Below are positions 3,583 through 31,654 of a stretch of DNA of 32,000 nucleotides, piece after piece. Position 1 is the stretch's first letter; every line of letters starts with the position of its first letter. Source of the stretch: Nostoc sp. PCC 7120 = FACHB-418 (GTDB lineage: Bacteria; Cyanobacteriota; Cyanobacteriia; Cyanobacteriales; Nostocaceae); contig NC_003272.1 in assembly GCF_000009705.1 (NCBI RefSeq), positions 5,730,001 through 5,762,000 of the forward strand. The letters are read 5' to 3'. Made by a program: the position numbers and the translations under genes. The notes below the pieces were generated by a model. The model worked only from the letters and a program-made list of their open reading frames with translations. It searched no databases and was not told the origin of the DNA.

Positions 3583-3664
3583 TATCGATTTACTGTAGTT
3601 TCTCATCAAGAAGTGTGATGGGCTATCGATTTACTGTAGTTTCTCATCAAGAAGTGTGATGGGC
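3583..3664. repeat. perfect 41-bp tandem duplication (2 copies)
   Basis: TATCGATTTACTGTAGTTTCTCATCAAGAAGTGTGATGGGC occurs at 3583..3623 and again at 3624..3664. The next two bases (TA) start a third copy. It lies in the intergenic DNA at the left edge of the R-M island. Confidence 0.9.
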
Positions 3665-3910
3665 TACCGTTGGCGATGGCTAATTTAATACTTGTCACTT
3701 TCTGCCAGCCACTCAAGAATTTACTCTTCTCCATTAGCATTAACATATTGGCAGAATGAAAGTAAAAAACTGTTTACGTGCGCTGCATTAAGTGAGTTGC
3801 TTAAGTTGCGTAGTTGTCATTCCAGCAGTTTACAGAAAGACTAGATACCCTTGACAAAAGAGTACAAAGGTATCAAGCTAATTTTCTCAGAACTTAAATG
3901 CTTTAAATGT

Positions 3911-5155
3911 ATGGTACAAAGAGAACAACCTATTGCTATTGATTTGTTTGCAGGGGCAGGAGGCTTTGGTTTAGGTTTTGAAATGGCAGGCTTCTCTGTA
4001 CCTTTATCTGTTGAAATTGATACCTGGGCTTGTGATACACTACGCTACAACCGCCCTGATTCAACAGTTATTCAAAATGATATCGGTAACTTTAGTACAG
4101 AAAATGACGTTAAGAATATCTGCAACTTTAAACCTGATATTATTATTGGCGGGCCTCCATGCCAGGGATTTAGTATTGCTGGGCCAGCCCAAAAAGATCC
4201 TAAAGATCCTAGAAATGGTTTATTCATCAACTTTGCACAATGGATAAAATTTCTTGAACCTAAAGCGTTTGTCATGGAAAACGTAAAAGGATTGCTATCA
4301 AGGAAAAATGCAGAAGGTTTTAAAGTTATAGATATTATTAAGAAAACATTTGAAGAACTTGGTTATTTTGTCGAAGTATGGGTTTTAAATGCTGCGGAAT
4401 ATGGCATTCCGCAAATTAGAGAACGTATTTTTATTGTTGGCAATAAAAAAGGTAAAGTACTAGGTATTCCTAAAAAAACACATTCTCTGCAATTTTTAAA
4501 TTTAAATAGGTCTCAATTATCGATCTTCGATGATATGAGTATTATACCTGCACTAACTTTGTGGGACGCAATATCAGACTTACCAGAACTTAATGCGCGT
4601 GAAGGAAGTGAAGAGCAACCCTATCATTTAAAACCTCAAAATACTTATCAGACTTGGGCTAGAAATGGTAGTGCTACGCTTTACAATCATGTTGCAATGG
4701 AACATTCTGACCGTTTAGTAGAACGTTTCCGGCATATAAAATGGGGTGAATCCAGTTCGGATGTATCTAAAGAACATGGAGCTAGACGACGTAGTGGTAA
4801 TGGTGAATTATCAAACAAATCATATGATCAGAATAATCGCCGTTTAAATCCTCATAAACCGTCTCACACTATTGCTGCGTCATTCTATGCTAATTTTGTC
4901 CATCCTTTTCAACATCGAAATTTAACAGCCCGTGAAGGAGCTAGAATCCAATCTTTTCCAGATAACTATAGATTTTTTGGAAAAAAAACTGTCGTATCTC
5001 ATAAACTATTGCATCGAGAAGAAAGATTTGATGAAAAATTTCTTTGTCAATATAATCAAATCGGTAATGCTGTACCCCCTCTTCTCGCTAAAGTAATTGC
5101 ACATCATCTTCTAGAGAAATTAGAGTTATGCCAACAACTGATAGAAATCCTCTAG
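3911..5155 (+). CDS. DNA (cytosine-5)-methyltransferase, type II R-M modification subunit
   Basis: All canonical m5C-MTase motifs are present in order: DLFAGAGG (I), GGPPCQGFS (IV, catalytic Cys), ENV (VI), NAAEYGIPQIRERIFIVG (VIII), TAREGARIQSFPDNY (IX) and QIGNAVPP (X). A long variable TRD lies between VIII and IX. The track ORF starts at TTG 3851. ATG 3911 leaves the usual roughly 10 aa before motif I. Confidence 0.92.
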   Translation: MVQREQPIAIDLFAGAGGFGLGFEMAGFSVPLSVEIDTWACDTLRYNRPDSTVIQNDIGNFSTENDVKNICNFKPDIIIGGPPCQGFSIAGPAQKDPKDPRNGLFINFAQWIKFLEPKAFVMENVKGLLSRKNAEGFKVIDIIKKTFEELGYFVEVWVLNAAEYGIPQIRERIFIVGNKKGKVLGIPKKTHSLQFLNLNRSQLSIFDDMSIIPALTLWDAISDLPELNAREGSEEQPYHLKPQNTYQTWARNGSATLYNHVAMEHSDRLVERFRHIKWGESSSDVSKEHGARRRSGNGELSNKSYDQNNRRLNPHKPSHTIAASFYANFVHPFQHRNLTAREGARIQSFPDNYRFFGKKTVVSHKLLHREERFDEKFLCQYNQIGNAVPPLLAKVIAHHLLEKLELCQQLIEIL

Positions 5156-5427
5156 TGCATGGATCAAATCTTGAACAAAAAGAGAATCATCGTACAAAAT
5201 ACAGAGATACTGAAAGCAGGACTTTCCTTAGAGAAATCAGAACTGAATATGACAAATGGCATAAAGCAAATATGAACCTGGTTGGACCAAAATCAGAAAT
5301 TACTGACCAAGATGATTCAATTATTACTCAAAGAGTGGAACTTCTCACTAAATATAAAGATTTTTTAGATCAGCAGCATTATGCAGAAAAATTTGATTCA
5401 AGATCCAACCTTCATTCTAGTGTTTTA

Positions 5428-6336
5428 GAGACCATTTATAAAGTAAATCTTTAGACGACTAGACGACGTAGCATAATACGAGTCATAACGGCATATATGG
5501 CAGCCTCACTCATTTCTGGGAGACGCTCATAATCCTTACTGAGACGACGGTACTGGTTTAACCAGCCAAATGTTCTTTCTACTACCCACCGTTTGGGCAA
5601 AACCTGAAATTCTTGATTAGTACGCCGGATTACCTCAACATGAGCTTGAATCATCAGCCAAACAGAGAGCGCAAATTTATCACCGTCATAGCCGGAATCA
5701 ACCCAGATGACTTCAACTTTTTCCAGTAATTCTGGACGCTCTTCTAACAGTTCCATCAAAGTATAGGCGGCAAGTAATCTTTCTCCAGCATTTGCTTCAC
5801 TTACAACCACTTTTAACAAAAGTCCCAGACTATCAACCAAAGTTTGCCGCTTTCGTCCTTTTACCTTCTTGCCACCATCAAAACCGTACACATCCCCCTT
5901 TTTTCAGTCGTTTTTACCGACTGGCTGTCTGCCGCGATCGCCGTGGGTTGAGTTGACTTCCCCATTTTTTGACGAACTTGATCGCGCAAAGTATGATTCA
6001 TTTGCTCCCAGATACCTCGTTTTTGCCATTTACGATAGTAGCTGTAAACAGTTGAACTAGGAGGAAAATCCCCTGGAAGCATATCCCACTGACAACCTGT
6101 TTTCAGATGGTAGTAGATAGCGTTGCATACTTCTCGCATATCAGTTGTTCGGGGATGCCCACCGCATTTAGCGGGTGGAATCAAAGGAGCTAAAATTGCC
6201 CATTCTGAGTCATTAAGGTCTGTAGAATAAGACTTTCGTCTCATTGTTTCCTATGTAAATACACTCTACAAACAGTATCTTATCGCTGCCTTTTTATCTG
6301 ATAGCTCTCCTTTAGATTTACTTTATAAATAGCCTC
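5428..6336 (-). mobile_element. IS5-family insertion sequence (IS427/IS1031-like), 909 bp
   Basis: The terminal inverted repeats are GAGACCATTTATAAAGTAAATCT (5428..5450) and the reverse complement of 6314..6336, GAGGCTATTTATAAAGTAAATCT. They match at 21 of 23 positions. A 3-bp direct target duplication, TTA, sits at 5425..5427 and 6337..6339. There are two overlapping transposase ORFs with an A6G slippery site. The element contains a HIP1 site (5934..5941). Confidence 0.9.
5451..6244 (-). CDS. IS5-family DDE transposase, OrfA-OrfB produced by programmed -1 frameshift
   Basis: OrfA (6244..5861) is the typical N-terminal DNA-binding part (SEWAILAPLIP...YYHLKTGCQWDMLP...YYRKW). OrfB (5891..5451) carries the DDE part (WVDSGYDG, ERTFGWLNQYRRLSKDYE). 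The frames overlap at GAAAAAAGGGGG (complement of 5894..5905). A -1 slip there gives ...TEKKGDVYGFDGGKKVKGRKRQ. Confidence 0.88.
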
Positions 6337-7069
6337 TTAGAAGAATTTCTTTATTATTTATTTAAAGATTTAGTACAAGATTTCGGGCAGAACGCTCTTA
6401 TTGGTAAGTCACACACGTTCAAAGATATTTTCTTCGTACCACCAAAATATTCTGAAATGCTCAAGCGACCTTATGCGCGAATTGAGAGAAAAGATCATGA
6501 TTTCGTAATTGGTGCAACTGTTCAAGCATCGCTTGAAGCAGCACCTCCTCCAGAACAAGATAATACTCCTGGTGAAATACTTGCAATTTTAAAGGAAGAG
6601 CCTGATACATATTCTGAAGTGACAGTCACGGGTAATATTGAGACACATATTTTTGATATTCCAGTTGTTGCAATCGAATGTAAAACATATTTAGATAAAA
6701 CCATGCTTGAGGGATCTTCACGCGCAGCAGAGGATTTAAAAGCGAGAAATCCTAACAGTTTATACCTTGTGGTTATGGAATGGATAAAACTGACCAATGA
6801 TGTAAATTTACGAAAATATAAAGTTGATCAAATTTATGTACTACGTCAGCAAAAAAATACTGATAGAGAGTTTAGGTATGAGTCAACTTACATAAAAAAT
6901 TCAATTAATCCAACGGTAGTACAACATCTTTTCAAGAAGGTGCAACACCATTTAATAAAGGATTGGGCCGGTGGTATTGAGTCTGGGATACAGCGTGGAT
7001 GGTTAATTGATGAATAAACAACACGTATTATCTCCGCCCGTCCAGCTACTCGCAGAGAAAGAAAACTAT

Positions 7070-7366
7070 ATGAACAAGCCTGATGAAGAACTGCAACTAC
7101 ATTTAAAAGCCCGTGCAGCAGAAACAGTGTCAATAAAAATACCAACAGATACATTAGAAGCGCTCAAAAAAGTTGCAGCTAGTCGAGATATGACAGTTGA
7201 AGCTCTACTCAGATTTTACATTGGGCAGAGTTTGCGACAAGACTTAGCTAAATTATTTTCTGAGCGTGTACTGGAATCAACTGCTCAAGTGTTAGCACGG
7301 CATATCCAATCAGAAGATGAAGTTCTCACAATTATTCGAGAAATTCAAGCTGAAACAATTCTTTAG
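7070..7366 (+). CDS. ribbon-helix-helix (CopG/BrnA-like) protein, solitary
   Basis: The segment VSIKIPTDTLEALKKVAASRDMTVEALLRFYIGQSL fits the beta-strand/helix/helix RHH pattern seen in CopG-type antitoxins. The track ORF begins at 7007 inside the REase gene. ATG 7070 is the first plausible start. No toxin-like partner ORF is adjacent. Confidence 0.55.
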   Translation: MNKPDEELQLHLKARAAETVSIKIPTDTLEALKKVAASRDMTVEALLRFYIGQSLRQDLAKLFSERVLESTAQVLARHIQSEDEVLTIIREIQAETIL

Positions 7367-7372
7367 TTAATC

Positions 7373-9286
7373 TCAAATCTGCTGTAAATAATAGTCGAAA
7401 CGCTGTCGTAATTGTTCAACTGTGAGATTTTGAGTCCAGTATTCAACTAGCGCATGACCAAAAGCCCAGGCGTTGCGGTCTGGTGTGGTGGGGTTTTCTA
7501 AAAGTAGCGGCCACAGAGATAATAAGTCAAAGTTGAGGGTGCTGGATTCTTCTGTTTTTAATAGTGAGAATAAATCATAAGCCATTTGCAGTTTACCAAT
7601 GACAATGGGTAACTGTTCTACGGGAATTTGTTCTGCTAGTAGGTAAGCCAAGGTTGGGGAACCAGTGGAAATGGTAGAAATGAACTGAAGCACTGGACTT
7701 TTGAGTAATGCTGTCAATCCTTGGGTGGTTGCCATTTGTAATGTGTAGTGGTCGATGATTTTGGCAGCAGCTACAGTACGGGCTTCTAGGTTACGCAAAA
7801 AGCGGGCGAGTCTGAGTTGTTTGGCTGGGGCGATCGCCTGGATTAATCCCAAGGATAAAGCCTCTATTCCCCAAGCAAGTCTACCTGTTTGTGTATCACC
7901 TGTGACAATGGGTAGGACTAGATTACAAAAGTCTCCTAACAAGTTAGCACGGTACTCTGTAGCTTCGCGGATGGCAATTTCCTTGGGTCTGTTACCCAAT
8001 TCCCAATCATAAGGCGGTTGCCATTCACGGATGGGACGCAGACGATCTACTTGAGTAACTACAGCGATCGCGGGGATGTCTGCAACTGTGGCTTTGATTT
8101 CTTGCAAAAAGTCCACATCCATTTGTAAAGCGGGGTCAAGTACAGGAGTGACTAACAGTAATAAGTCGGCTTTGGTGGCATATTCTAATACGGAATCCCG
8201 TAAATCGCCCCGTTTAACTTGTTCGTATCCTGGTGTGTCTAAGAGATTCAAGGTTTCCCCATCTTGGGTTTGCCAGTGGTAATTTTGAATTTCGGCGGTG
8301 CTGGGTAACACATCAACTTCTGCCAAATTACTTTGGAAGATTGTATTAATTAAACTGCTTTTGCCTGCTCCCGTTCTTCCTGCCAGTAAAATATTTACAG
8401 GTTTCTGGGTAACTTTCTCGACTGGCTGGGCTTGTGCGAGAATGTTTTCTAGTGTTTGAGTTTTGGTTTTTGGTAAGGTTGGGGTAGAAACGGTAGCTGT
8501 GGAGATATTTACTGTAGTTCCACTGTAGAGGGCGATCGCCTGGCGACACAAGTTTTTTAAAGCGGCTTCCCGCAGTAATTGCCCCAAATTCACCAATAAT
8601 TGCTGATTTGCTTGATTAGTTGTTCCCTTAGTTGCCCGGTTAGCCGCCGCAGCCACAGGATTTAACAACCACTGCGCCCAGTTCCATGCACGCCAGACCT
8701 TCCGCGCTGATGGTTCTAGTTTGCGATACACTTCGTATGCTTGGTATGCTTGCCCAATTGTTACCTGATTGAGTGCTGGTGATAACTTCTGCATCCATTG
8801 ATCTAAGTCATCGACTGTTCCCCGAATCAATCCGTAAGCTTGGGGTACGTAGATATTTAGTAAGGGATACTGCACCTGGGGATAATAAATCAGGGCGATC
8901 GCTCTCACTAAATCTTGACATCTTTGCCAAAATGTTGTCCAATCTTCCCAAATTGGGCGATCGTTTTGGGCGATTGTGAGAATTTCTTGCAAAGCTGCTT
9001 CTGCTTGTTGTGTCCTATCACTACTAACAATTGGTGTTGTATCCTCCACCGCAGATTTGAGTTCTTCTTTAACTTCGGCTAATGCAGCTTCTATTTGCCG
9101 GATGGCTGGTTGTGTCCATTTCACCAACAACCAACGCCAAGCTACAAATGCCAAGGTAAACACAGCCCAAATCCAACTTAGTCCCCAAGCATGAATCTGC
9201 ATCCCGGCGGATACTAGTAAGAAAATAATTATGGAGGCGATCGGCATTGCCAATATCACCCACTGCCACGGTTTTAAACGCACCAT
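7373..9286 (-). CDS. membrane-anchored P-loop GTPase (HSR1/YfjP-like GTP-binding protein)
   Basis: Two N-terminal TM helices are present. GTPase motifs are G1 GRTGAGKSSLIN, G3 LLDTPGY and a G4-like VTQVD. At least four HIP1 sites lie inside the gene, consistent with native core DNA. Confidence 0.75.
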   Translation of the reverse strand: MVRLKPWQWVILAMPIASIIIFLLVSAGMQIHAWGLSWIWAVFTLAFVAWRWLLVKWTQPAIRQIEAALAEVKEELKSAVEDTTPIVSSDRTQQAEAALQEILTIAQNDRPIWEDWTTFWQRCQDLVRAIALIYYPQVQYPLLNIYVPQAYGLIRGTVDDLDQWMQKLSPALNQVTIGQAYQAYEVYRKLEPSARKVWRAWNWAQWLLNPVAAAANRATKGTTNQANQQLLVNLGQLLREAALKNLCRQAIALYSGTTVNISTATVSTPTLPKTKTQTLENILAQAQPVEKVTQKPVNILLAGRTGAGKSSLINTIFQSNLAEVDVLPSTAEIQNYHWQTQDGETLNLLDTPGYEQVKRGDLRDSVLEYATKADLLLLVTPVLDPALQMDVDFLQEIKATVADIPAIAVVTQVDRLRPIREWQPPYDWELGNRPKEIAIREATEYRANLLGDFCNLVLPIVTGDTQTGRLAWGIEALSLGLIQAIAPAKQLRLARFLRNLEARTVAAAKIIDHYTLQMATTQGLTALLKSPVLQFISTISTGSPTLAYLLAEQIPVEQLPIVIGKLQMAYDLFSLLKTEESSTLNFDLLSLWPLLLENPTTPDRNAWAFGHALVEYWTQNLTVEQLRQRFDYYLQQI

Positions 9287-9417: not shown

Positions 9418-9539
9418 ATAGGACTAGTATTGGATTTGTGAAATATACATAGAGCAATGCCCACCACAACCATGATACGGTGGGCAATGCCCACCCTACA
9501 GATACTTAAAGCATTTCCATAATCAAATCTGATTCCTAT
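9418..9539. repeat. MITE-like dispersed element, copy 1
   Basis: The termini are ATAGGAC...GATTCCTAT, with imperfect inverted ends. The internal near-palindrome is GGTGGGCAATGCCCACC followed by CTACA. A related copy lies at 30727..30875. Confidence 0.7.
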
Positions 9540-13192: not shown

Positions 13193-13900
13193 ATGTCCGT
13201 ACCTGATTTTACTCCTAAGCCGGAACATTTCACTATGAATAGATTAGCTATTGTGAATCATCCAATGAATGCGGACTTTTTACAACAGCCTGTACACTAT
13301 TCAACTATTAGCGTTAGAAAAAGATTAATTGATATTATCGGTGCTATTGTGGGGCTGATAATTACAGCCATTATCACAATCCCCATAGCTATACTTACTA
13401 TTATTAATGATCCTGGGCCAATATTTTATTCTCAAATTCGTTGCGGTCTGAACGGCAGACATTTCCGCATTTGGAAATTCCGTTCTATGGTGGTTAACGC
13501 CGATAAAGTTAAACATTTAGTAAAAAACCAAGCTCAGGGTCACATATTTAAATCGGTGAATGACCCACGTATCACCCCTATGGGTCAATTTTTGCGTCGT
13601 ACCAGCTTAGATGAGTTTCCCCAATTTTGGAATGTTCTGATAGGGGATATGAGTTTAGTGGGAACCCGTCCACCCACACCTGATGAAGTCGTTCACTATG
13701 AACCACGTCACTGGGAACGATTACGGGTTAAACCAGGAATGACGGGAGAATGGCAAACTAAAGGTCGTTCCAACATTAAAGATTTTGAAACTATCGTACA
13801 GATGGATTTAGATTATCAACGTAAATGGTCTATAACTTACGACCTCAATCTGATATTAAAAACCGTGTGGGTAGTGCTAAAAAAAAGCGGTGCTTGTTAG
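13193..13900 (+). CDS. small phosphoglycosyl (sugar-1-phosphate) transferase, bacterial sugar transferase family (WbaP C-terminal/PglC-like)
   Basis: The segments KRLIDIIGAIVGLI (re-entrant helix), [54 protein letters not shown] and KPGMTGEWQ are the hallmark blocks of this family. Confidence 0.88.
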   Translation: MSVPDFTPKPEHFTMNRLAIVNHPMNADFLQQPVHYSTISVRKRLIDIIGAIVGLIITAIITIPIAILTIINDPGPIFYSQIRCGLNGRHFRIWKFRSMVVNADKVKHLVKNQAQGHIFKSVNDPRITPMGQFLRRTSLDEFPQFWNVLIGDMSLVGTRPPTPDEVVHYEPRHWERLRVKPGMTGEWQTKGRSNIKDFETIVQMDLDYQRKWSITYDLNLILKTVWVVLKKSGAC

Positions 13901-18038: not shown

Positions 18039-18800
18039 TCAGTATGCTCCGTTATTTTTAGGCATGATTACCACATCAATTGTTTTCAATATAATCCATA
18101 AGTCCAACCAGAGAGTCCTAGATTTCACATAATGCAAATCGATTTGCACTCGTCGGGGATAGGGAATGTCATTCCTTCCTGAAACTTGCCATAATCCAGT
18201 AATCCCTGGTCGAATTGTTAGAACTTGTTCGATGTGATCACCATATTTTGGTAATTCTTCTGCTACTAAAGGGCGTGGGCCAACAACACTCATATCCCCT
18301 TTTAAAACATTCCAGAATTGGGGAAATTCATCCAGGCTGGTAATTCGTAAAAATTGACCAATCTTAGTAATTCTGGGGTCTTTTTTGAGCTTAAAACTAC
18401 TTTCAAATTCCTGCCGCAACTGTGGTGATGTTTCCATCATTTGCATGAGGACTTCATCAGCGTTGCTGACCATTGTCCGGAATTTAATACAATTAAAGGG
18501 TTTGTAGTTTTGGCCGATTCTTTCTTGGACATAAAAAATTGGGCCTTCTGAGCTTAAAGCAATCAGCGATGCCAAGATTAAATAGACTGGTGAGAATAGG
18601 ATCAACACCAATAAAGAAAACACAATATCGAAAAGTCTTTTCGCAAACTCTCCGTTGATACCTTGCAAAGACAAACCTTTGGGTTTGATTTTAGGTGTCT
18701 TTGTTTTTTGACCACGCTTGACTGTAGAACGCATAGACGAGCTAGCATCTTGCCGTAAGCGTCGTTTGCCGGAGAGGAGTGAACTCTGGGCAGTCATCAT
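18039..18800 (-). CDS. small phosphoglycosyl transferase, bacterial sugar transferase family (paralog of 13193..13900)
   Basis: The hallmark blocks are [73 protein letters not shown] and [14 protein letters not shown]. The track start at 18824 is a GTG. The tandem ATG ATG at 18800/18797 directly follows AAGGAG and is the more likely start. Confidence 0.85.
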
Positions 18801-18907
18801 ACTCCTTAATAATCCACACCACACATAGTCCCAATCTTAAAGCCAAAAGGATGTGCTTCTGGGGTTAAATTGCCAAAAGCATACAAAAGAATTACAAAAA
18901 ATTCTGC

Positions 18908-20529: not shown

Positions 20530-21465
20530 ATGCGAATTTTAATAATGGGTGGTACTAGGTTCATTGGTGTCTATTTGACGCAAATCCTGGTTGAACAAGG
20601 ACATGAGGTAGTACTTTTCAATCGTGGTAATCGACCGTTACCAGCTTTACAGGGAGTAGGACAAATTATAGGCGATCGCACGGATGCCACGCAGCTCAAA
20701 GAAAAATTATCAGCAGAAAATTTTGATGTTGTTTTTGACAATAACGGGCGGGAATTAACGGATACTCAACCACTGGCGGAAATTTTCCAAGATAGAGTGC
20801 AGCATTTTGTTTATATGAGTTCTGCGGGGGTTTATCTCAAATCCGACCAGCTACCCCATATAGAAGGGGATAAGGTAGACCCCAAAAGTCGCCACAAAGG
20901 TAAGCATGAAACCGAGGCTTATTTGCAGCAAATAGGATTACCCTTTACCTCGATTCGTCCCACCTACATTTACGGCCCACGTAACTACAATGATTTAGAA
21001 AGCTGGTTCTTTGATCGGATTGTACGCGATCGCCCCCTGCCCATTCCAGTTAATGGGCTGCATATTACTCAGTTAGGTCATGTCAAAGATTTAGCAATGG
21101 CAATGTCGCAAGTGATTGGCAACAAACAGGCGATTGGGCAAGTATATAATATTTCTGGCGATCGCTATGTCACGTTTGATGGTTTAGCTCGTGCTTGCGC
21201 CCAAGCCTTGGGAAAATCAGCCGATGATCTTAAAATTGTCCATTACGACCCGAAAAAATTTGATTTTGGTAAACGCAAAGCTTTCCCCATGCGAGTGCAA
21301 CATTTCTTTGCTTCAGTAAATAAAGCACAGACAGAATTAAATTGGCAACCGCAATATGATTTAATTTCTGGGCTGGCTGACGCTTATGAAAATGATTATG
21401 TAGCAAGTGGACGCGATAAATCAGAAATAGATTTCTCTGTAGATGACGAGATTCTCAAAGCTTAG
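20530..21465 (+). CDS. NAD(P)-dependent epimerase/dehydratase-family SDR protein (CSP41-like)
   Basis: The N-terminal Rossmann motif is ILIMGGTRFIGVYL. The length and blocks (YMSSAGVY, RPTYIYGP) resemble the atypical SDR group related to chloroplast CSP41. Confidence 0.7.
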   Translation: MRILIMGGTRFIGVYLTQILVEQGHEVVLFNRGNRPLPALQGVGQIIGDRTDATQLKEKLSAENFDVVFDNNGRELTDTQPLAEIFQDRVQHFVYMSSAGVYLKSDQLPHIEGDKVDPKSRHKGKHETEAYLQQIGLPFTSIRPTYIYGPRNYNDLESWFFDRIVRDRPLPIPVNGLHITQLGHVKDLAMAMSQVIGNKQAIGQVYNISGDRYVTFDGLARACAQALGKSADDLKIVHYDPKKFDFGKRKAFPMRVQHFFASVNKAQTELNWQPQYDLISGLADAYENDYVASGRDKSEIDFSVDDEILKA

Positions 21466-21523: not shown

Positions 21524-21631
21524 CTCTTTGACCACTCATACTAGTTTGGTCAAAAACGATGAGATAGAGAAATGAAAATGAATGGTTTTGATTTCTCTTT
21601 GACCACTCATACTAGTTTGGTCAAAAACGAT
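21524..21631. repeat. two identical 37-bp hairpin-containing repeats spaced 71 bp start to start
   Basis: CTCTTTGACCACTCATACTAGTTTGGTCAAAAACGAT occurs at 21524..21560 and 21595..21631. Each contains the stem TTTGACCA/TGGTCAAA. They lie between convergent genes. Confidence 0.9.
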
Positions 21632-21638
21632 AACATAT

Positions 21639-22928
21639 TTAATTTAAAGTTTCAGGCAAAGAAGTTTTCTGCTCATTAGCAATATTGCGTTCATACCAAC
21701 TCATTAATGGCGTAGCAGATATGCCATGTATAACTACAGAAACTACCACCGTAGTGTAAGTTATCCAAGCTATTTCTTCGGCAACTGCATCTTTTAAACC
21801 ATGACCAAAGGCATAGGCGAGATAATATAAGGAACCAACGCCACGAATGCCAAACCAGCCAAGTAACCAGCGAGTTCCAGGATGGAGGCGGCGGCGATGG
21901 GATGCTAAAGGACGTTTGCCAATGGTGCTAATCCAGGCTCCAATAGGTCGAATAATTAAAAATAGGAAAATAATTATTATCAAAGACTGATAGCCATAGT
22001 TAATTATTGGTTGCCATAGTAATATCGAACCTAATAATAATATTGTGCCAACTTCTAAAAGTTTTTCTAAGCGTTCAATAAATTCTAATTGTGCAAGTGG
22101 TTTTTCTGGATTTCTATAAGTATCTTGGAAAACTAATCCAGCAATAAATACTGCTAAAAATCCATAACCGTTGACAACTTCTGTTAGAGAATAAGTTAAC
22201 AATATTGCACTGAGAGCAATAAAATCTTCCATCAACGCATCAGCAGAACGACGCTTCTGGACTTTTTGATCAATCCAAACTATTGCTTTGGCAACAACAA
22301 AACCCATAATTAATGCAGCAGCGATCGCCCAAATTAAATCAACTGCTACCCACTGCTTAAACCATGTGTTCCAGTTGTCATCTTTGATAGCAAAAAGTCC
22401 AAAATAGACAAAAGGAAATGCTAAGGCATCATTTAAACCACCTTCCGAGGTTAAACCAAAACGTAGCTCATCTTTATCATTGATATCTGTTAGTTGAACT
22501 TCCGATGCTAACACTGGGTCAGTGGGGGCAAGAATGGCTCCTAATAAAATCGCTTCGCCCCAATTCATGCCTAAAAATAATTTAGCTACAACAGCTATGG
22601 CAAAAATAGAAATAGGCATTAAGAAACCAATAAGGCGTGCGGTAATATCCCACACTCTACGTCTCAGGGGATGGATTATTTTTAATCCACAGCTAAAAAC
22701 GGAAATAATGACGACAAATTCTGTGATTCTTTCCAATAAATCTGCATTAAATACATCATCCCGCCTTAGTTGTATCAACCCAAAGCCATAAGGGCCGAGA
22801 ATGATTCCCACTAAGAGATATATCAAGGCAAAAGATAGAGGTAACCGCGAAATCCAACCAGAACCTAATGTAACGACGAGCAAAAGTAGCCCAATTACAA
22901 ATAGGTCAATAATATAAATATCTACCAT
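21639..22928 (-). CDS. cation/proton (Na+/H+) antiporter, CPA1/NhaP-like
   Basis: The 429-aa polytopic membrane protein has about 11 to 12 hydrophobic segments. The segments LGAILAPTDPV and SEGGLNDALAFPF match the conserved Na_H_exchanger core (TDP and ND motifs). Confidence 0.8.
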   Translation of the reverse strand: MVDIYIIDLFVIGLLLLVVTLGSGWISRLPLSFALIYLLVGIILGPYGFGLIQLRRDDVFNADLLERITEFVVIISVFSCGLKIIHPLRRRVWDITARLIGFLMPISIFAIAVVAKLFLGMNWGEAILLGAILAPTDPVLASEVQLTDINDKDELRFGLTSEGGLNDALAFPFVYFGLFAIKDDNWNTWFKQWVAVDLIWAIAAALIMGFVVAKAIVWIDQKVQKRRSADALMEDFIALSAILLTYSLTEVVNGYGFLAVFIAGLVFQDTYRNPEKPLAQLEFIERLEKLLEVGTILLLGSILLWQPIINYGYQSLIIIIFLFLIIRPIGAWISTIGKRPLASHRRRLHPGTRWLLGWFGIRGVGSLYYLAYAFGHGLKDAVAEEIAWITYTTVVVSVVIHGISATPLMSWYERNIANEQKTSLPETLN

Positions 22929-24513: not shown

Positions 24514-27500
24514 TTACTTCAATATATCGCAGAGACGGCGATCGCTCTCTGTGACATGAGGGTTATTCTCTAGATAATCTTGTAGCCAATTACAACCACG
24601 CGCCAGTAATTGGTCTAAATTTTCTATCGGCCATAATCTCACGGTGCGATCATCAGAAGCCGTGGCAATATACTGATCATCAGGACTGATACTAATACTT
24701 CTGACTGCACCTTTATGTCCTTTGAATTGCGCTAGTTGCTGTCCGTTAAGATTCCATAACCTAGCGGTGCGATCGTCGGAACTAGTAGCGATATACTGCC
24801 CATTATGACTAAAAACGGCACTCTTCACCGGGGCTTGATGTCCTCTAAATTCGGTCACTATTTGCCCATCCAGAGTCCACAATTTAGCTGTATGGTCTTC
24901 AGAAGCAGTCACCAGATATTGACAATCAGGGCTAAAATTCACACTCCAAACTATACTTTGATGCCCCAAGAATTGCCCGACCTGTCGTCCTGCCAGATTC
25001 CACAATCTAGCGGTACAGTCATCAGCAGCAGTCGCAATATGCTGACCATTGCAACTAAAACTCACATATCGCACCCATTTATCATGCCCTTTAAATTGCA
25101 TCAACTCCTGACCATCAAGACTCCATAATCTAGTCGTCAAGTCAGAGGAAGCAGTAGCGATGTGCTGGCCATCCGGGCTAAAACTAACGCTCCAAACTGT
25201 ACCTTGATGTCCTGGAAATTGCTGAAGTAACTGCCCTGTAATATCCCATAATCGTACCGTCCGGTCAGAGGAAGTAGTAGCAATATATTTACCGTCGGGG
25301 CTAAAACTCACACTCCAAACTTTTCCTCGATGTCCAAGGAACTGTAAAAGCTCCTCACCTTTAATATTCCACAAACGTACAGTCCGGTCATCGGCAGCAG
25401 TAACGACTTTCTGCCCATCAGGGCTAAAATCTACGCTCCTAACTGTACTCTGATGTCCTTGAAATGCGGAAAACTGCTGCTTGTTGAGGTGCCACAATCG
25501 GACTGTACGGTCGGAAGATGCAGTCGCAATATATTTACCATCTGGGCTAAAACTGACGCTTCGCACATAGTCCTGATGTCCTGAGAATTGCGCTAGTTGC
25601 TGACCATTGAGATTCCAAACCCTAGCGGTACGGTCAGAGGAAGTTGTAGCGATATATTGACCATTGGGGCTAAAACGCACACTCCAAACCACACCCTGAT
25701 GGCCTCGAAATCTGGTTATTTGTTCTCCTGCAAGGTTCCATAACCGAGATGTACCGTCAGAGGAGGCGGTAGCAATGTACTGACTATCGGGGCTAAAACT
25801 TACATCCCAAACACAATCTTGATGTCCTGGGAATCGGACAAGCAATTTCCCCTTGAGGTTCCATAATCTGACTATACGGTCATCAGCAGCTGTGGCGATG
25901 TGTTTACCATCTGGGCTAAAACTGATACACCAGACGGTTCCTTGATGTCCAGGAAACTGCACTAGCTGCTGACCGCTAAAACTCCATAATCTGGCGGTGT
26001 GGTCATCACCAGCCGTGGCAATATGTTTACCATCTGGGCTGAAACTGACACTCCGCACATAGCCCTGATGACCTTGAAATTTGGCTAATTGTTGACCGCT
26101 AAAGTTCCATAACCTGGCTGTCCGGTCAGAGGAAGCAGTGGCAATATATTTGCCATCAGGACTGAAATTGGCACTCCAAATTGTATCTTCATGTCCTTGC
26201 AATGAGATTAATTGTTTGCCTTGGAGATTCCATAATCTGGCGGTACAGTCGTCAGAAGCCGTAAGGATATACTGACCATCACGACTAAAACTGACACTCC
26301 TGACCCAGGCTTGATGTCCTTGGAACTGGTTACGCTCTTGGATATTGTCTAAAATCGTCTGCAAAGCCAGTAATGGACTAGTTGCTGGGTATTTTGCCAG
26401 AGAGCGACCGTCTTTGACTAAAGCTTGCAAGGCTTTTCCACTCCGCATTGCTGACATGAGGGCATCCAATTGTGCAAAATCGAACTGTCGTACAGCGCTG
26501 ACTCCTTCCTGTTCTAAGGTTGTCCCTGCTTGTGCTTCTCTGAGGGCAACTTGTTGTTTTTCTAATTCTGCGTTGACTTGAGTTAGTATGGTTTCTACCC
26601 GCTCTAGCTCTTGTTCAATTTGTTTTCTTTGTTGCCGTTCCTGTTCGAGTTCTGCTAACAATTCATTTCCCTGCTGTTGACGAATGAACGGCACTAGATA
26701 ATCATGTACTAATTGATAGCGATCTGCTGGTACTTCTGGTAAGAGTAACACTAACCCAGACTTCACAAAAATTTCTAATATTAAATCTAATGTTTTTATC
26801 TCTGGTTTTAAATCTGAGGCCAAATCAGTCCGAGTTTTGAGAGGACGAGTACCGTTTTCATCTGTGAGTAAATATAATACTAAGCGCGCCATGTGTTCAT
26901 TTTCTGAACCACAATTTCTAATAACCGTTTCTAAAAACCTTTCTACTAATTTTTCTTTAGTACCAAACTGACAATATTTTTCTAAAGTATTAATTTTTTC
27001 TGTTTGCATTTGCGCCCCCACAATCTGTAATTCAATGGGACGTACTTCCCCAAACTGGCATGATAAATCTTCAACTAGCTTATCTATAAGTTTAGGTTCT
27101 AAGTAAAAGTGTGTTTTCTCTGTCAGGTTTTGGATAATAGCTTTAGCATCTGCGGGGGAAAAATTACCCAAGTAATAACGAATATTTTTATCTAAAATAT
27201 TATTATTAATTGACCCCAAATTAAATAATCGTTCTAATTCTAGTAAGTAGTGTAAATAATCTTCCCGCAACGAAAGTACAATCTTGACAAAAGGAATATC
27301 CAAACAAAAACTTAAAAAATCGTAAAAGGCTTTTCTGCTAGCTTTATCTGTATAAACGAAGAAAAACTCCTCAAACTGGTCAAAAATTAACACTGTTAAA
27401 AGATGGCGCTCAGAATTCTTCTGTAATTGCTCTCTAATGGCTACGGCTGAATTAAGATCATGAGATAACTTATAACCTCTAACTTCCTCAACAGCTTGTG

Positions 27501-29169
27501 CTAGGTTTTGTCCTAATGTTCCTACCCAATCTGTATACACTCGTAACAGTATAGGTAAAGCATCACGTTCAGCAATAGGCTTTTCCTGCAAAGCGGGTAT
27601 TAGACCAGCTTGTAAAATAGAGCTTTTACCCACCCCTGATTGACCATGAATGACAGTCAATTTATGTTCGGTGCTACTAATCCTTTCTCGCAAACGTTGA
27701 ACATCCCTTTCTCGACCAGAAGCAACTATTTCTTGAGCAATTGTTCCCTTTCTGTCTACTTGTAATTGTGCGGGATTAATCGCCTGAAGCTGAGGATTGA
27801 GATAAGATGCGCCAACAAAGGCACAAAAACCATATTGTTGTTCAATTTGTAGTTGCTCTTGTTTAGCTTGAAAAGCTGCTAAATATTGACCTTGCTCAAA
27901 ATAGACATTACTTAACATCTCTAAAATATTAATATAAAGCCTGGGATTATAGTAAGCCTGGGTTTCAGTTTTGGCTGCTAATAAATTGCTGACAGCATCG
28001 GCATTTTCATTTAGTTCTTTTTGGGAGCGGGCTAAGATAAATAGATATAAACTCCGTTCAGGAACTTTTTGATTCGAGATATTCTTCAGTCTTTGTAATG
28101 CTTTTTGAGCAAGTTTTTTAGCCTCATACCATTGAAAACTTTCTAAAGAAACTTCAGCTAAAAACCCATAAGATTGGGCAATTTTTAGCGATTGACCGTA
28201 ATTTTTATGCAGTTTTAATGATTTATGCGCTAAGTTATATAAATCTGGCCAAGCATTTAAGTTCCTTAACACCTCTCCTAACGTATTAATATACTTGGCA
28301 ATTAAATTATCAAAATGTCCTTTTTCTAAAATAGCAATACATCGCTGAAGATATTTTCTGGCTTTTTGGTAACATCCCTGATTATCTATCAGATTTTTCT
28401 CCGCCTGTCTCACATAAGTCAAACCAATGTTAAATAGTAATATTCCTTGCCGTTTCAAATTATGATTTTTTTGCCAGAAATCTAAACTATCTTGATAATG
28501 AGCTAAAGCAGAGTCTGTATGGTCGTGTAAATAATCATGTAAACCCCGGACAAACTCCAGGTTAGCTTGAATGACTTGATTTAATTCTCTACCTCTGTTT
28601 TGCAAATCTTGAATTCCTCGATTTAATTCCCAACAAATCTGGGGATTGGGAATTACATCACCAATAAAGACTTCATCAGTTTTTCTCTGAATAAAACTTA
28701 TTAACTCATTAGTGTTACTTTCAAATGGAATAATAGTAGCCCAATTTTCTAAATCGGTGGCTAATCTAATGAACTTTTGGAGAACTTGGTCATTAACCCA
28801 TAACATTATAGGAAAAGGAAAGTTTTTTCTAAACTCTTCTCTTACTCGGTTAGCCGCAGTCAGCACAGTATCAATATCTTGAGCAGACTCTAAGCCAAAG
28901 ACAATCAATGCGGGTGGTTGTTCATCTCCTAATTGTTCATTTATATTTGTGTAGAGTGTTTTTACTGTTTCTGGTAAAGTGATTTCATGTATTTTGATTG
29001 GAGAAATTTGATGTAGTTGTTGGGTAATGCGTTTACGCAAAGCCGCGTAATTACAACGCAATAATATTAAGGAAAATTCTCCCTGAGAAAAAGTAATTGC
29101 CCTTACCAAAGTTTGTAACGACTGCTCATTCTCAGGAGTTAAGTTATGGGAATTAGGTAGATTATTCAT
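24514..29169 (-). CDS. giant STAND-type P-loop NTPase with an unknown N-domain, TPR region, coiled coil and 14 WD40 repeats
   Basis: Walker A is IHGQSGVGKSS and the Walker B-like block is LLTVLIFDQFEEFF, the hhhhDQFEE signature I associate with the novel-STAND/NACHT-related group. TPR-like helical repeats lie N-terminal to the NTPase. A coiled coil is present (ELLAELEQERQQRKQIEQELERVETILTQVNAELEKQQ). Then come 14 consecutive 41-aa GH...WD-type units. The C-terminal tail is RGCNWLQDYLENNP. Confidence 0.9.
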   Translation of the reverse strand: MNNLPNSHNLTPENEQSLQTLVRAITFSQGEFSLILLRCNYAALRKRITQQLHQISPIKIHEITLPETVKTLYTNINEQLGDEQPPALIVFGLESAQDIDTVLTAANRVREEFRKNFPFPIMLWVNDQVLQKFIRLATDLENWATIIPFESNTNELISFIQRKTDEVFIGDVIPNPQICWELNRGIQDLQNRGRELNQVIQANLEFVRGLHDYLHDHTDSALAHYQDSLDFWQKNHNLKRQGILLFNIGLTYVRQAEKNLIDNQGCYQKARKYLQRCIAILEKGHFDNLIAKYINTLGEVLRNLNAWPDLYNLAHKSLKLHKNYGQSLKIAQSYGFLAEVSLESFQWYEAKKLAQKALQRLKNISNQKVPERSLYLFILARSQKELNENADAVSNLLAAKTETQAYYNPRLYINILEMLSNVYFEQGQYLAAFQAKQEQLQIEQQYGFCAFVGASYLNPQLQAINPAQLQVDRKGTIAQEIVASGRERDVQRLRERISSTEHKLTVIHGQSGVGKSSILQAGLIPALQEKPIAERDALPILLRVYTDWVGTLGQNLAQAVEEVRGYKLSHDLNSAVAIREQLQKNSERHLLTVLIFDQFEEFFFVYTDKASRKAFYDFLSFCLDIPFVKIVLSLREDYLHYLLELERLFNLGSINNNILDKNIRYYLGNFSPADAKAIIQNLTEKTHFYLEPKLIDKLVEDLSCQFGEVRPIELQIVGAQMQTEKINTLEKYCQFGTKEKLVERFLETVIRNCGSENEHMARLVLYLLTDENGTRPLKTRTDLASDLKPEIKTLDLILEIFVKSGLVLLLPEVPADRYQLVHDYLVPFIRQQQGNELLAELEQERQQRKQIEQELERVETILTQVNAELEKQQVALREAQAGTTLEQEGVSAVRQFDFAQLDALMSAMRSGKALQALVKDGRSLAKYPATSPLLALQTILDNIQERNQFQGHQAWVRSVSFSRDGQYILTASDDCTARLWNLQGKQLISLQGHEDTIWSANFSPDGKYIATASSDRTARLWNFSGQQLAKFQGHQGYVRSVSFSPDGKHIATAGDDHTARLWSFSGQQLVQFPGHQGTVWCISFSPDGKHIATAADDRIVRLWNLKGKLLVRFPGHQDCVWDVSFSPDSQYIATASSDGTSRLWNLAGEQITRFRGHQGVVWSVRFSPNGQYIATTSSDRTARVWNLNGQQLAQFSGHQDYVRSVSFSPDGKYIATASSDRTVRLWHLNKQQFSAFQGHQSTVRSVDFSPDGQKVVTAADDRTVRLWNIKGEELLQFLGHRGKVWSVSFSPDGKYIATTSSDRTVRLWDITGQLLQQFPGHQGTVWSVSFSPDGQHIATASSDLTTRLWSLDGQELMQFKGHDKWVRYVSFSCNGQHIATAADDCTARLWNLAGRQVGQFLGHQSIVWSVNFSPDCQYLVTASEDHTAKLWTLDGQIVTEFRGHQAPVKSAVFSHNGQYIATSSDDRTARLWNLNGQQLAQFKGHKGAVRSISISPDDQYIATASDDRTVRLWPIENLDQLLARGCNWLQDYLENNPHVTESDRRLCDILK
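24631..26322 (-). repeat. intragenic 123-bp periodic array encoding 14 WD40 blades
   Basis: The units follow xGHxxxVxSVSFSPDGxxIATASxDxTxRLWNLxGxxLxxF and are recognisably repeated at the DNA level (for example GGGCTAAAACT.AC.CTCCAAAC recurs). Fourteen blades would give two 7-bladed propellers. Confidence 0.9.
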
Positions 29170-29189
29170 CTTATGAACAAGACAACATC

Positions 29190-30494
29190 TTATAATTTAA
29201 AGTCTTTGGCTTCTGCCAAAATCGGATTAATATCAAACCAGGAACCATCCTCGTCTCGGTATTCAAATACAAACATACTGGGAAGCAAAAGTTCATATTT
29301 TTCATGACCTCTCAAGCTTTTATCTTGCGCTACTTCGTAAAGAACTTCCCATTCATCAGGAGTAATAGCCAATGAAAGTTCATTACAGCGTTGTTTAATT
29401 ACCCTATCTAGACATTTCCGCGAAATGGGGGGGTCTTCTTGTTGAAGACAGCGAAATAATATCATGAGCAAATTACGCAAATGGCCACCACTAACTAAGC
29501 ACAGTCTATCCAATGTTTCAGCGCTATCAAAAACCTCTGTAATTAACGTTTGGTTTTGTTCCCAACTTACGCCAGGAAACGCCCTGGCCATTACCATCTG
29601 TTGTAGTAAGTTGATTCCCTGGGCAAATTTAGTACCGTTTTGAAGTTTTACAGGTACCATTGGCAGGACTTTGGGGTCAATACCAAAACGATTTGTTAAT
29701 CTACCTAAAGCATTGGAGAATATTAAAACTAAGGGAATTGTATAAACAACATGGCAGTTTAGTTGGTTTAACTGTTCACCACGTTCTACAAATAAATATT
29801 CAGGCTGGATTTGTCCTGTAGGCTTCAATGAGTTATCAATGCGGTCAAGATTGTCAATGATGACCACTAATCCTTTTTTACCTTGCAATTTCAGTTTAGC
29901 GATCGCTGGTTGTAGTAGTTCTTTATTGATAGACTCTAAAATACCATTGGTGCGTGGTTCTAGATATTGCCGTAATTGCGATCGCAGTTTCGGACTATCT
30001 TTAGTTTTAGCGGTAATTTTGCCAATACCTACAGATAACTCCGCTTCTACGCCAATATCTAGGGGTGTTTGCAAAAAACCCACAATTTCTGTAAACAAAT
30101 TTTGGAAGTATCCAGGTTTGAGGTTAATCTTGATTGCCTCTAGACTTTGACTCACCTCACGGGCTATTGCTAATAAAATATCTGTCACGTCTACATCAGC
30201 CATATCCAGGCTTTGGCTAGACTCAAAGTACACTACATGAAATCCCTGCTGTTCTAACTCTGATTTCAGGCGGAGTAATTCCGTTGATTTACCACAACCA
30301 ATATGACCAGTAAACAACTGACAAGTAGGTTCATCTGGTGAAAGCCTGGTGATAGTTCGCCCTAATTCGTCAATAATCTTGCTACCCCGCACCTTAGAAA
30401 AATCAATGTAATATTGTCTATCCTCCGGTTTGCTGACAGCCAAAGTTTTGCTAGGATTGCACGCCTGAAAAAACCTGATTAAATCTAACTTCAT
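29190..30494 (-). CDS. AAA+/ORC-Cdc6-like P-loop ATPase (sensor-less STAND-like), upstream partner of the WD40 gene
   Basis: Walker A is FTGHIGCGKSTEL, Walker B is GLVVIIDNLDR, and a sensor-2-like SGGHLRNL is followed by a small C-terminal helical (winged-helix-like) region. The stop lies 20 nt upstream of the ATG of 24514..29169 on the same strand. Confidence 0.75.
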   Translation of the reverse strand: MKLDLIRFFQACNPSKTLAVSKPEDRQYYIDFSKVRGSKIIDELGRTITRLSPDEPTCQLFTGHIGCGKSTELLRLKSELEQQGFHVVYFESSQSLDMADVDVTDILLAIAREVSQSLEAIKINLKPGYFQNLFTEIVGFLQTPLDIGVEAELSVGIGKITAKTKDSPKLRSQLRQYLEPRTNGILESINKELLQPAIAKLKLQGKKGLVVIIDNLDRIDNSLKPTGQIQPEYLFVERGEQLNQLNCHVVYTIPLVLIFSNALGRLTNRFGIDPKVLPMVPVKLQNGTKFAQGINLLQQMVMARAFPGVSWEQNQTLITEVFDSAETLDRLCLVSGGHLRNLLMILFRCLQQEDPPISRKCLDRVIKQRCNELSLAITPDEWEVLYEVAQDKSLRGHEKYELLLPSMFVFEYRDEDGSWFDINPILAEAKDFKL

Positions 30495-30726: not shown

Positions 30727-30875
30727 ATAGGATTCATACTTGATTTTTGAAATACACGTAGGGTGGGCAATGCCCACCAGCTCATGGTTTTGGTAGACAA
30801 TGCCCACCCTACAAGTACTGATAATTTTATGTGCAAGCGCAGGCTACGCCAACAGAAATCAAATCGGATTCCTAT
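30727..30875. repeat. MITE-like dispersed element, copy 2
   Basis: The termini are ATAGGATTCATACTTGATTT ... AAATCAAATCGGATTCCTAT (inverted). The internal long hairpin is GTAGGGTGGGCAATGCCCACC ... CAATGCCCACCCTAC. It shares the core and the right end with 9418..9539 and lies about 230 bp upstream of the ATPase/WD40 operon. Confidence 0.7.
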
Positions 30876-31177: not shown

Positions 31178-31654
31178 ATGTCTGGTGTGAAAGAATATCC
31201 TGGGGAACAATACATAATTATTCGCCACAGTCAACGCTTAATTAAAAGTTTTCAGTATTGGACAGGAAATTTATTACTAGATGTGCATGGATCACCTGAT
31301 GAAACAGCGTTGGCATTATTTGAAGCACCATTTGTCTTAGTTTCTCATGGTACGGAACCAGACCCAATTTTTAACTACGGTAATCGCAAAGCTTTAGAAC
31401 TATGGGAAATGTCTTGGAATGAATTTACGAAAATGCCTTCGCGCAAGAGTGCTGAGGAGATGGTACAACAAGAACGCGATCGCCTGTTAGCAGAAGCAGC
31501 AACTCAAGGTTTTAGTTACTACTCTGGTGTACGCATTACCAGCACTGGCAAACGCTTTTATATGCAAGACGGTATCATCTGGAATCTGCTGGATGAACAA
31601 CACCAGTATTGTGGTCAAGCAGCTGTTTCCTATAATTATCAATTTATTACATAA
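31178..31654 (+). CDS. standalone MEKHLA-domain (PAS-like) protein
   Basis: The segments FVLVSHGTEPDPIFNYGNRKALELWEMSWNEFTKMPSRKSAE...ERDRLL...GFSYYSGVRITSTGKRFYMQDGIIWNLLDE...GQAA match the conserved blocks of cyanobacterial MEKHLA proteins as I recall them. Confidence 0.75.
   Translation: MSGVKEYPGEQYIIIRHSQRLIKSFQYWTGNLLLDVHGSPDETALALFEAPFVLVSHGTEPDPIFNYGNRKALELWEMSWNEFTKMPSRKSAEEMVQQERDRLLAEAATQGFSYYSGVRITSTGKRFYMQDGIIWNLLDEQHQYCGQAAVSYNYQFIT

Follow-up and report, generated by a model that had tools for sequence, protein, structure and literature searches.

A conserved ATPase, a P-loop-less adaptor and an NLR-like sensor: a possible three-module NTPase switch in Nostoc sp. PCC 7120

Introduction

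Filamentous cyanobacteria possess dozens of proteins in which a STAND core (signal transduction ATPase with numerous domains) is joined to WD40 repeats or to tetratricopeptide repeats (TPR), and Anabaena PCC 7120 is a genetically tractable model. One locus of this bacterium raises the question of how a STAND protein lacking any recognisable effector might deliver a signal when it is encoded beside a second, separate ATPase. The locus lies in a stretch of 32,000 nucleotides (nt) of Nostoc sp. PCC 7120 (contig NC_003272.1, positions 5,730,001 to 5,762,000), hereafter the window, and comprises two genes on its minus strand, called here A and B. The pair is a real, conserved and uncharacterised module, and its key feature is an adaptor domain without a P-loop, named Bn and located at the N-terminus of B, which ties a conserved ATPase (A) to a sensor resembling those of NLR proteins (nucleotide-binding, leucine-rich repeat receptors). 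The constant partner of A is Bn together with the TPRs, not the STAND-WD40 part of B.

The gene pair and the modules of B

Exact sequence look-up matches gene A to BAB76534.1 and gene B to BAB76533.1, both from Nostoc/Anabaena sp. PCC 7120. We take their locus tags to be all4835 and all4834, respectively, from the order of the accessions and the neighbouring P450 gene. No paper on all4834/all4835 was found, nor any experimental work on the pair in the literature searched. The features of both genes, with positions in the window, are the following:

29190 to 30494, minus strand: gene A (BAB76534.1), open reading frame (ORF) of 434 amino acids (aa)
30282 to 30308, minus strand: Walker A of A, GHIGCGKST, residues 63-71
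29841 to 29867, minus strand: Walker B of A, VVIIDNLDR, residues 210-218, of the hhhhDxLD[RK] type, as in KAP NTPases
29469 to 29492, minus strand: SGGHLRNL motif of A
29193 to 29432, minus strand: C-terminal winged-helix-like domain of A, residues 355-434, secondary structure H-H-H-beta-beta, net charge -5
29170 to 29189, minus strand: spacer between A and B, 20 nt, too short for a promoter
24514 to 29169, minus strand: gene B (BAB76533.1), multidomain ORF of 1551 aa
28660 to 29169, minus strand: Bn, residues 1-170 of B, alpha/beta domain, predicted AAA+-like, without Walker A
27805 to 28659, minus strand: TPR region of B, residues 171-455, with matches to TPR_12 (within residues 200-480), TPR_10 and TPR_MalT
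27718 to 27804, minus strand: linker, residues 456-484, fusion point of Bn-TPR and nSTAND1-WD40, and split site in locus L096
26605 to 27717, minus strand: nSTAND1 NTPase module, residues 485-855 (PF20703, E 2.1e-35, 123.5 bits against a cut-off of 27.1)
27619 to 27645, minus strand: Walker A of B, GQSGVGKSS, intact and kept in relatives
27367 to 27393, minus strand: Walker B of B, VLIFDQFEE, of the hhhhDxxEE form, intact and kept in relatives
26323 to 26604, minus strand: helical linker, residues 856-949, probably a coiled coil, as judged from sequence composition only
24601 to 26322, minus strand: WD40 array, residues 950-1523, with 14 Pfam WD40 stretches

A sequence-only reading of this DNA had described two head-to-tail ORFs of 434 and 1551 aa with a 20-nt spacer; both exist at these coordinates, and all the motifs that it quoted were located in A and B. 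The geometry suggests that the two genes are co-transcribed. In other genomes a 4-nt overlap between A and B is common, as seen in L001, L004 and L093. Promoter and terminator scans returned consensus-level matches only, with no excess over the shuffle expectation, and nothing was found in Rfam and tRNA scans of the window.

Pfam confirmed that B is a STAND NTPase, of the nSTAND1 type, equipped with both TPR and WD40 repeats and lacking a recognisable effector, as that reading had held; searches in Pfam, PADLOC and NCBIfam detected no catalytic effector domain in either A or B. The 14 WD40 repeats are each exactly 41 aa long and in phase, with a mean pairwise identity of 56% and a periodicity of 123 nt in the DNA, and would be enough for two seven-bladed propellers. 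The N-terminal region of B, which the same reading had missed, is a distinct conserved domain and not a TPR. Bn has no Pfam match at E <= 1; its first strand, FSLILLRCNY, contains no P-loop, and residues F32, L34, C39, G92, R110, W124, D139 and W143 are invariant in the alignment of relatives. An AlphaFold2 (AF2) model of residues 1-215 of B (predicted local distance difference test score, pLDDT, 89.7; predicted template-modelling score, pTM, 0.84) was compared with known structures by Foldseek, and all the matches were AAA+ cores (RFC1, RAD17, RuvB, Hda, NorQ and ORC4; E 3e-5 to 3e-4).

Protein A

Protein A is predicted to be soluble and to belong to the AAA+ ATPases; its Walker B is KAP-like, and its predicted fold resembles that of ORC/Cdc6. 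In the AF2 model of A (pLDDT 74.7), the NTPase core bears a long helical insert and is accompanied by a lid and, at the C-terminus, by a winged helix that is acidic. The insert (residues 100-205, between Walker A and Walker B) is amphipathic with a net charge of 0, and no transmembrane segment was detected in A, the maximum 19-residue Kyte-Doolittle mean being 1.54, on a beta-strand. Among 27 orthologues, residues G63 to T71 are invariant, and both T62 and the FVFEYRDEDGSWFDINP hairpin of the winged-helix domain are nearly so; in a distant clade of A the Walker B reads [IV][LIV][VI]DDLDK. The identity of A is 72-88% across Nostocales, out to Coleofasciculus, Trichocoleus and Leptolyngbyaceae.

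At the sequence level, A has only weak Pfam matches: KAP_NTPase (28 bits, cut-off 20, spanning profile positions 3-165 of 293 only, that is, the N-terminal half), AAA_22 (27.3 bits, cut-off 27), ATPase_2 and nSTAND5. A search of the Protein Data Bank (PDB) with a profile of A returned guanylate kinase, at E 0.94, as its sole match; NCBIfam gave none for A or Bn, and for a distant A a sub-threshold match to the Sll1717 family (29.9 bits against a cut-off of 75). By structure, the best Foldseek matches of the model are ORC1/Cdc6 proteins (7jgr_A, E 4.9e-6; 2v1u, 2qby and 1fnn), with low TM-scores of 0.22-0.28, and further ones are TnsC, the KAP-type RdrA, Apaf-1 and NLRs. These matches bear out the earlier description of A as an AAA+/ORC-like ATPase devoid of sensor repeats, and nothing found places A in a well-characterised housekeeping family. 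The GGHLRN stretch had been called sensor-2-like: the motif is there, but its Arg340 is not family-wide, since the distant clade has GGQPSEL in its place.

Linkage of A and Bn across genomes

Relatives of A were found in at least 591 stretches from GTDB species genomes, of which the best 80 were examined; nearly all of these 80 carry cyanobacterial labels, mostly of filamentous genera. Downstream genes were counted for the 76 cyanobacterial A genes having at least 700 nt of downstream sequence. A Bn-containing ORF comes next on the same strand in 71 of them, and nearly all of these partners are built as Bn+TPR+nSTAND1(+WD40). The genes flanking the pair vary between genomes while the Bn ORF stays, so the two genes are conserved as a pair, and their adjacency is far from rare outside PCC 7120.

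The family of A extends well beyond this set, with 2764 clusters retrieved at E <= 1e-3, of which 376 also reach E <= 1e-30, in a profile-free search of 1.84 billion representatives. In members of 32-37% identity, the next gene again starts with a Bn-like domain (hidden Markov model, HMM, E 1e-13 to 1e-21). In the distant clade (about 32% identical to A; Planctomycetota and Armatimonadota) a Bn-like domain lies directly downstream in 64 of 66 metagenomic loci, and nSTAND1 is present in none of the partners at these 66 loci. A minimal pair was seen in three contexts: a metagenome-assembled genome (MAG) of Phycisphaerales, a locus whose A is named Fimbriimonadaceae, and one 7.9-Mb genome. In all three, the partner is a Bn-TPR protein of 429-508 aa without nSTAND1 or WD40, overlapping or abutting A, and the A proteins of this minimal clade are 54-58% identical between phyla. 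Because Bn-TPR alone accompanies A in these other phyla, it is the constant partner. If the module is taken as an A-type gene followed on the same strand by a Bn-like domain, the window fits it, as do the 71 cyanobacterial loci, the 64 metagenomic ones and P0394, a single protein described below. No third conserved gene emerged, the clustering of all ORFs in 82 loci giving only shadows of A and B, and no relative of A was found on viral contigs (IMG/VR).

Some loci depart from this arrangement or add to it. A second lineage of A, in L035, L066, L079 and probably L082, has no Bn downstream; the next gene is aroE (shikimate dehydrogenase) in L035, L066 and L079, and in L079 a gene for an apcE-like phycobilisome linker is found near A. 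Locus L035 (JBLNEP010000116.1) is labelled 'Actinomycetota bacterium MAG69', yet its A is 66% identical to the cyanobacterial protein and its A-then-aroE order is that of Microcoleus L066; the label probably reflects mis-binning or contamination. In Coleofasciculus (L001) and Trichocoleus (L004), a conserved gene pair encoding an SNF2 helicase (DUF3670) and a SWIM zinc-finger protein occurs directly upstream of A-B (3740-7828).

Split, fused and effector-bearing variants

The limits of the modules are drawn by natural rearrangements. In Microcoleus L096 three genes make up the system, encoding an A of 429 aa, a Bn-TPR protein of 457 aa and an nSTAND1-WD40 protein of 1211 aa. The second and third genes are separated at a point corresponding to residues 455-484 of B, where a genuine stop codon is followed after 10 nt by a new ATG. 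Since the two parts are separate genes in this locus, B of PCC 7120 can be read as a fusion of Bn-TPR and nSTAND1-WD40 genes, and the layout is consequently one of three modules and not of 'paired NLRs'. The opposite state is represented by P0394 (1179 aa), in which A-like, Bn-like (E 4e-11) and TPR regions form one protein in the order of the genes.

Other variants carry effectors. In the Nostoc locus L086, an A' paralogue with a C-terminal TIR domain and a standalone Bn' of 218 aa are nested between the orthologous A and B. The A relative P0314 carries CHAT and TRADD-N domains, P0256 and P0264 are A relatives fused to a second P-loop domain, and in L077 a CHAT gene is followed by a TPR-A fusion. 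No Bn-like domain was detected in the N-terminal extensions of A relatives of 950-1000 aa (P0251 and others; L077). The CHAT, TRADD-N and A-like fusion of P0314 (L087, 7001-9247) stands alone among small ORFs, ArdA (anti-restriction) and a UvrD-like helicase, surroundings that look like a mobile element. Genes for Uma2-family endonucleases adjoin atypical effector-bearing versions of the module (L077, 8418-9035; L086, 7422-8036), and a Uma2 domain also appears in the annotation of P0192, a relative of Bn-TPR. Paralogous pairs occur as well, and so do tandem duplications (L017 and L063; Nostoc sp. T09 and 106C). In several Nostoc MAGs (L009-L011, L015 and L016) B is found in two or more ORFs, which could be due to pseudogenisation or to assembly errors in the repetitive WD40 region.

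Selection and divergence

Averaged over 68 pairs, the p-distance is lowest for A (0.30), followed by nSTAND1 (0.41), Bn (0.47) and the TPRs (0.52), and the distances of A and B are correlated (r = 0.86-0.89). The ratio of non-synonymous to synonymous substitutions (dN/dS) was obtained from one close pair, PCC 7120 and its nearest relative, Nostoc parmelioides. It is 0.026 for A, a sign of very strong constraint, and for the modules of B it rises from nSTAND1 (0.044) through TPR (0.065), Bn (0.105) and WD40 (0.126) to the linker of residues 856-949 (0.156). By this ranking, A is the component that stays constant, and lability is greatest in the C-terminal sensor. All modules of A and B are under purifying selection, and positive selection was not seen in this pair. 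Diversifying selection on the WD40 sensor was considered as well; with a dN/dS of 0.126 and substitutions over most repeat positions, the idea is unsupported in the one close pair.

A model of the switch and its alternatives

The interpretation that we prefer, tentatively and with chances just short of even, is that the locus represents a three-module NTPase switch in its fused, cyanobacterial form, with Bn serving as the adaptor by which an NLR-like sensor governs a conserved ATPase. It builds on the observed domain composition, co-transcription geometry, A-Bn linkage, split and fused forms, and pattern of selection. The first module would be A, a soluble AAA+ ATPase; the second, residues 1 to about 455 of B (Bn and TPRs), the presumed obligate partner of A across phyla; and the third, residues about 485 to 1551 (nSTAND1, helical linker and two WD40 propellers), a probable addition of cyanobacteria only. 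We infer the physical contact between A and Bn, the direction of the signal, the kind of ligand and the effect on the cell as follows. Bn would dock on the ATPase core of A as a non-catalytic AAA+-type subunit, giving a stoichiometric A-B complex. A protein ligand would be bound by the WD40 propellers, and perhaps by the TPRs, upon which nSTAND1 may exchange its nucleotide and oligomerise, as NLR/Apaf-1-type proteins do. The clustered Bn-TPR arms would then gather A subunits and switch on an oligomer-dependent ATPase, which would be the output and would replace a fused toxin. In the rare variants, the same scaffold may be wired to TIR or CHAT effectors as optional add-ons. A role in the surveillance of stress or invaders is favoured. 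With regard to origin, it is possible, though on balance doubtful, that A and Bn-TPR form an ancient two-protein AAA+ machine, present in several bacterial phyla and as conserved as housekeeping proteins are, that filamentous cyanobacteria plugged into an nSTAND1-WD40 sensor, the TIR and CHAT domains being later add-ons. The result would be a receptor of the NLR type that has a conserved ATPase machine as its 'effector' where others have a toxin.

Several points weigh against this model. That A is the output is argued by elimination, since none of its domains is an obvious output and the winged helix carries an acidic charge. A second lineage of A (62-66% identical) has no adjacent B, which suggests that A need not have a Bn gene beside it to function. 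The AAA+-like assignment of Bn comes from one AF2 model with moderate TM-scores (0.4-0.49), and profile-profile alignment with hhalign detected no similarity of Bn to A or to the nSTAND1 core (probabilities 0.2-0.4); the 'pseudo-AAA+' label is therefore a structural one, and the idea that Bn is a degenerate copy of the NTPase core of A, or of that of B itself, finds no support at the sequence level in the same result. As for surveillance, the role is doubtful: the minimal pair sits among ribosomal, rpoA, glnA, purA and nusA genes, the A-B locus is outside any defence island, the WD40 array is under purifying selection, and there is no PADLOC system match.

The polarity of the system may also be the reverse, with A as an ATP-using chaperone or loader that holds, loads or resets the Bn-TPR(-STAND-WD40) protein, the scaffold of B being the output; by analogy, A would act as MoxR does on its vWA partners, or as a clamp or helicase loader. 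Such an arrangement, which we regard as unlikely, agrees with the constancy of A and its position as the most constrained component, as expected of a switch or chaperone, with the nature of its closest folds (the loaders and regulators ORC/Cdc6 and TnsC) and with the resemblance of Bn to clamp-loader and NorQ-type cores. In published ternary systems, moreover, an AAA+ ATPase is a threshold-setting switch (Kaur et al., 2020; PMC7159879). However, the minimal partner has no output domain besides its TPRs, and in the effector variants TIR is fused to the A-type protein and not to the Bn protein, which suggests that A stands next to the output.

A further possibility is that A and Bn-TPR constitute a housekeeping or regulatory ATPase-adaptor pair outside conflict, for example in protein assembly, quality control or signalling, which filamentous cyanobacteria would have linked to a WD40-STAND scaffold serving a signal of a developmental or physiological kind. 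The identity of A across cyanobacterial orders and between phyla in the minimal clade, together with its dN/dS, speaks for it, as do the housekeeping or metabolic neighbourhoods, the lack of relatives on viral contigs, the lack of a conserved third or effector gene, and the correlated divergence of A and B over the 68 pairs, which fits inheritance as a unit. We hold it to be rather improbable; against it stand the paralogue expansions and tandem duplications, the fragmentation of B in several MAGs, and the TIR, CHAT and TRADD-N variants. The combination of nSTAND1 and WD40 is, in addition, typical of conflict systems (PMC8195603).

The system might instead be an Avs-like device for antiphage abortive infection, in which the WD40 or TPR repeats of B sense a phage protein while A, as helper or executioner, brings about the arrest of the cell. 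The STAND and repeat-sensor architecture is of this kind, WD40-sensor STANDs are catalogued among prokaryotic STAND clades in a survey (PMC13581612), and the L086 variant has a TIR domain. PADLOC gives a weak match to the candidate PDC-S20 (E 2.6e-6, 25 bits) that covers only profile positions 48-197 of 464, from Walker A to Walker B. Nevertheless, no PADLOC system model, Avs and bNACHT included, matches A, B or their variants; the matches obtained are P-loop-only (PDC-S20, mad8, PbeC and LmuB) or WD40-only (HEAT-ARM_XIII), and assignment to a named defence system was rejected. The pair belongs to no named defence subtype in PADLOC, and the earlier judgement that it could not be assigned to a named system stands. 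No effector domain was detected, purifying selection acts on the sensor, and the conservation is unusually high for a defence gene. The neighbours of the pair in the window, which are polysaccharide-biosynthesis genes, a P450, an Na+/H+ antiporter and a MEKHLA protein, indicate that the locus is not in a defence island. A defence role is weakened by the dN/dS of A, the non-defence neighbourhoods and the purifying selection on WD40, and gains some support from the rare variants with TIR or CHAT/TRADD-N; in this antiphage form we consider it very unlikely. Because Bn is the constant partner of A in several phyla, the locus is better described as an uncharacterised switch than as a named antiviral system.

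Comparison with described systems

Among the closest relatives in architecture are the nSTAND1-family STAND NTPases (PF20703) of the NTP-dependent conflict systems of multicellular bacteria (Kaur, Burroughs, Iyer and Aravind, eLife 2020 and 2021). B shares with them an intact nSTAND1 flanked by TPR and WD40 repeats and an occurrence mainly in filamentous cyanobacteria, but its N-terminus has neither an effector nor an EAD adaptor, and in their place there are a P-loop-less AAA+-like domain and a separate ATPase gene. The MoxR-vWA-iSTAND systems (PMC7159879) similarly have three components, namely an AAA+ switch, a partner that is constant, and a component in which helical repeats accompany a P-loop-type domain that is inactive, and TIR and caspase-like effector types appear in variants. 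They differ in that no MoxR or vWA gene is present in the window or in related loci, A is KAP/ORC-like, the STAND module of B is catalytically intact by its motifs, and Bn has no Pfam match (whether the library contains iSTAND is unchecked). The iSTAND, EACC1 and EAD systems of Kaur et al. were rejected as assignments, their required MoxR, vWA, transmembrane-protein and caspase partners being absent. Term searches of Kaur et al. 2020 and 2021, the paper on diversity-generating retroelements (DGR) and the 2026 STAND survey, together with general literature searches, retrieved no description of the A-Bn(-TPR) pairing.

With Apaf-1 and the bacterial Apaf-1-like WD40 STANDs, B has in common a STAND NTPase followed by what would be two WD40 propellers, and ligand-driven oligomerisation may be expected. 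However, B is an nSTAND1 protein (NB-ARC at E 0.13, 11.9 bits against a cut-off of 23.5), has 14 blades versus 15 in Apaf-1, lacks CARD and caspase, and has an additional ATPase partner. It is also distinct from bNACHT/NACHT proteins (NACHT at E 0.022, 15 bits against a cut-off of 26.7) and from Avs, given that there is no Avs model among the PADLOC matches and that its N-terminus is Bn and TPR, with no effector of the nuclease, protease or TIR type. Sensor/helper NLR pairs, such as NAIP-NLRC4 and plant paired NLRs, may be seen as analogous in bringing together two NTPases, one with sensor repeats and the other without; in contrast to them, A is not a STAND paralogue of B, the link is made through the non-catalytic Bn, and the pair exists free of STAND in other phyla.

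As regards A, KAP NTPases were reportedly described by Aravind et al. in 2004 as having transmembrane helices inserted in the NTPase domain. A resembles this family (PF07693), which includes RdrA of RADAR, in its above-cut-off match, its DxLD[RK] Walker B and the large insert between Walker A and Walker B, and differs from it in the lack of transmembrane helices in that insert and of a deaminase or other RADAR partner. With the ORC/Cdc6 initiators A shares, in its predicted model, the AAA+ base, lid and winged-helix fold, but neither a sequence-level relationship, nor a family-wide sensor-2 arginine, nor a basic winged helix.

Other features of the window

Upstream of gene A there is a palindromic element that the sequence-only reading had called a copy of a miniature inverted-repeat transposable element (MITE):

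30747 to 30819, no strand assigned: palindromic dispersed repeat (MITE-like), about 70 nt, 253-325 nt upstream of the ATG of A, with arms at 30753-30779 and 30791-30817

The palindromic repeat is indeed found there, but there are only two copies within the window, the second one at 9454-9510; they are 75-77% identical and have GGTGGGCAATGCCCACC-type arms. The element is probably not part of the A-B system. Further upstream, at 31178-31654, a divergent gene encodes a stand-alone MEKHLA-domain protein (158 aa, E 1.6e-55).

Other repeats are located elsewhere in the window. At 3583-3664, in intergenic DNA upstream of an ORF at 3851, a 41-nt unit is perfectly duplicated in tandem (100% identical). 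A 54-nt direct repeat (21524-21648; 87% identical, 71 nt apart) has an epimerase gene (20530-21465) on one side and, on the other, the end of the gene for the Na+/H+ antiporter (21639-22928). Two oppositely oriented genes for paralogous Bac_transf sugar transferases (13193-13900 and 18039-18824), matched as inverted repeat I1 (113 nt, 75% complementary), bracket a polysaccharide cluster with GDP-mannose dehydratase, epimerase and glycosyltransferase genes.

Significance

The A-B pair is among the best-conserved of the STAND-WD40 and STAND-TPR systems of filamentous cyanobacteria, and its study adds a concrete architecture, that of an ATPase with a dedicated pseudo-ATPase-TPR adaptor, for which natural split, fused, minimal and effector-bearing versions are available. 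If the ATPase is truly the output of an NLR-like sensor, the signalling repertoire of NLRs would be broadened beyond toxins and proteases. If, on the other hand, the minimal pair has a housekeeping function, the family would represent a widespread and so far unannotated machine of Planctomycetota, Armatimonadota and Cyanobacteria.

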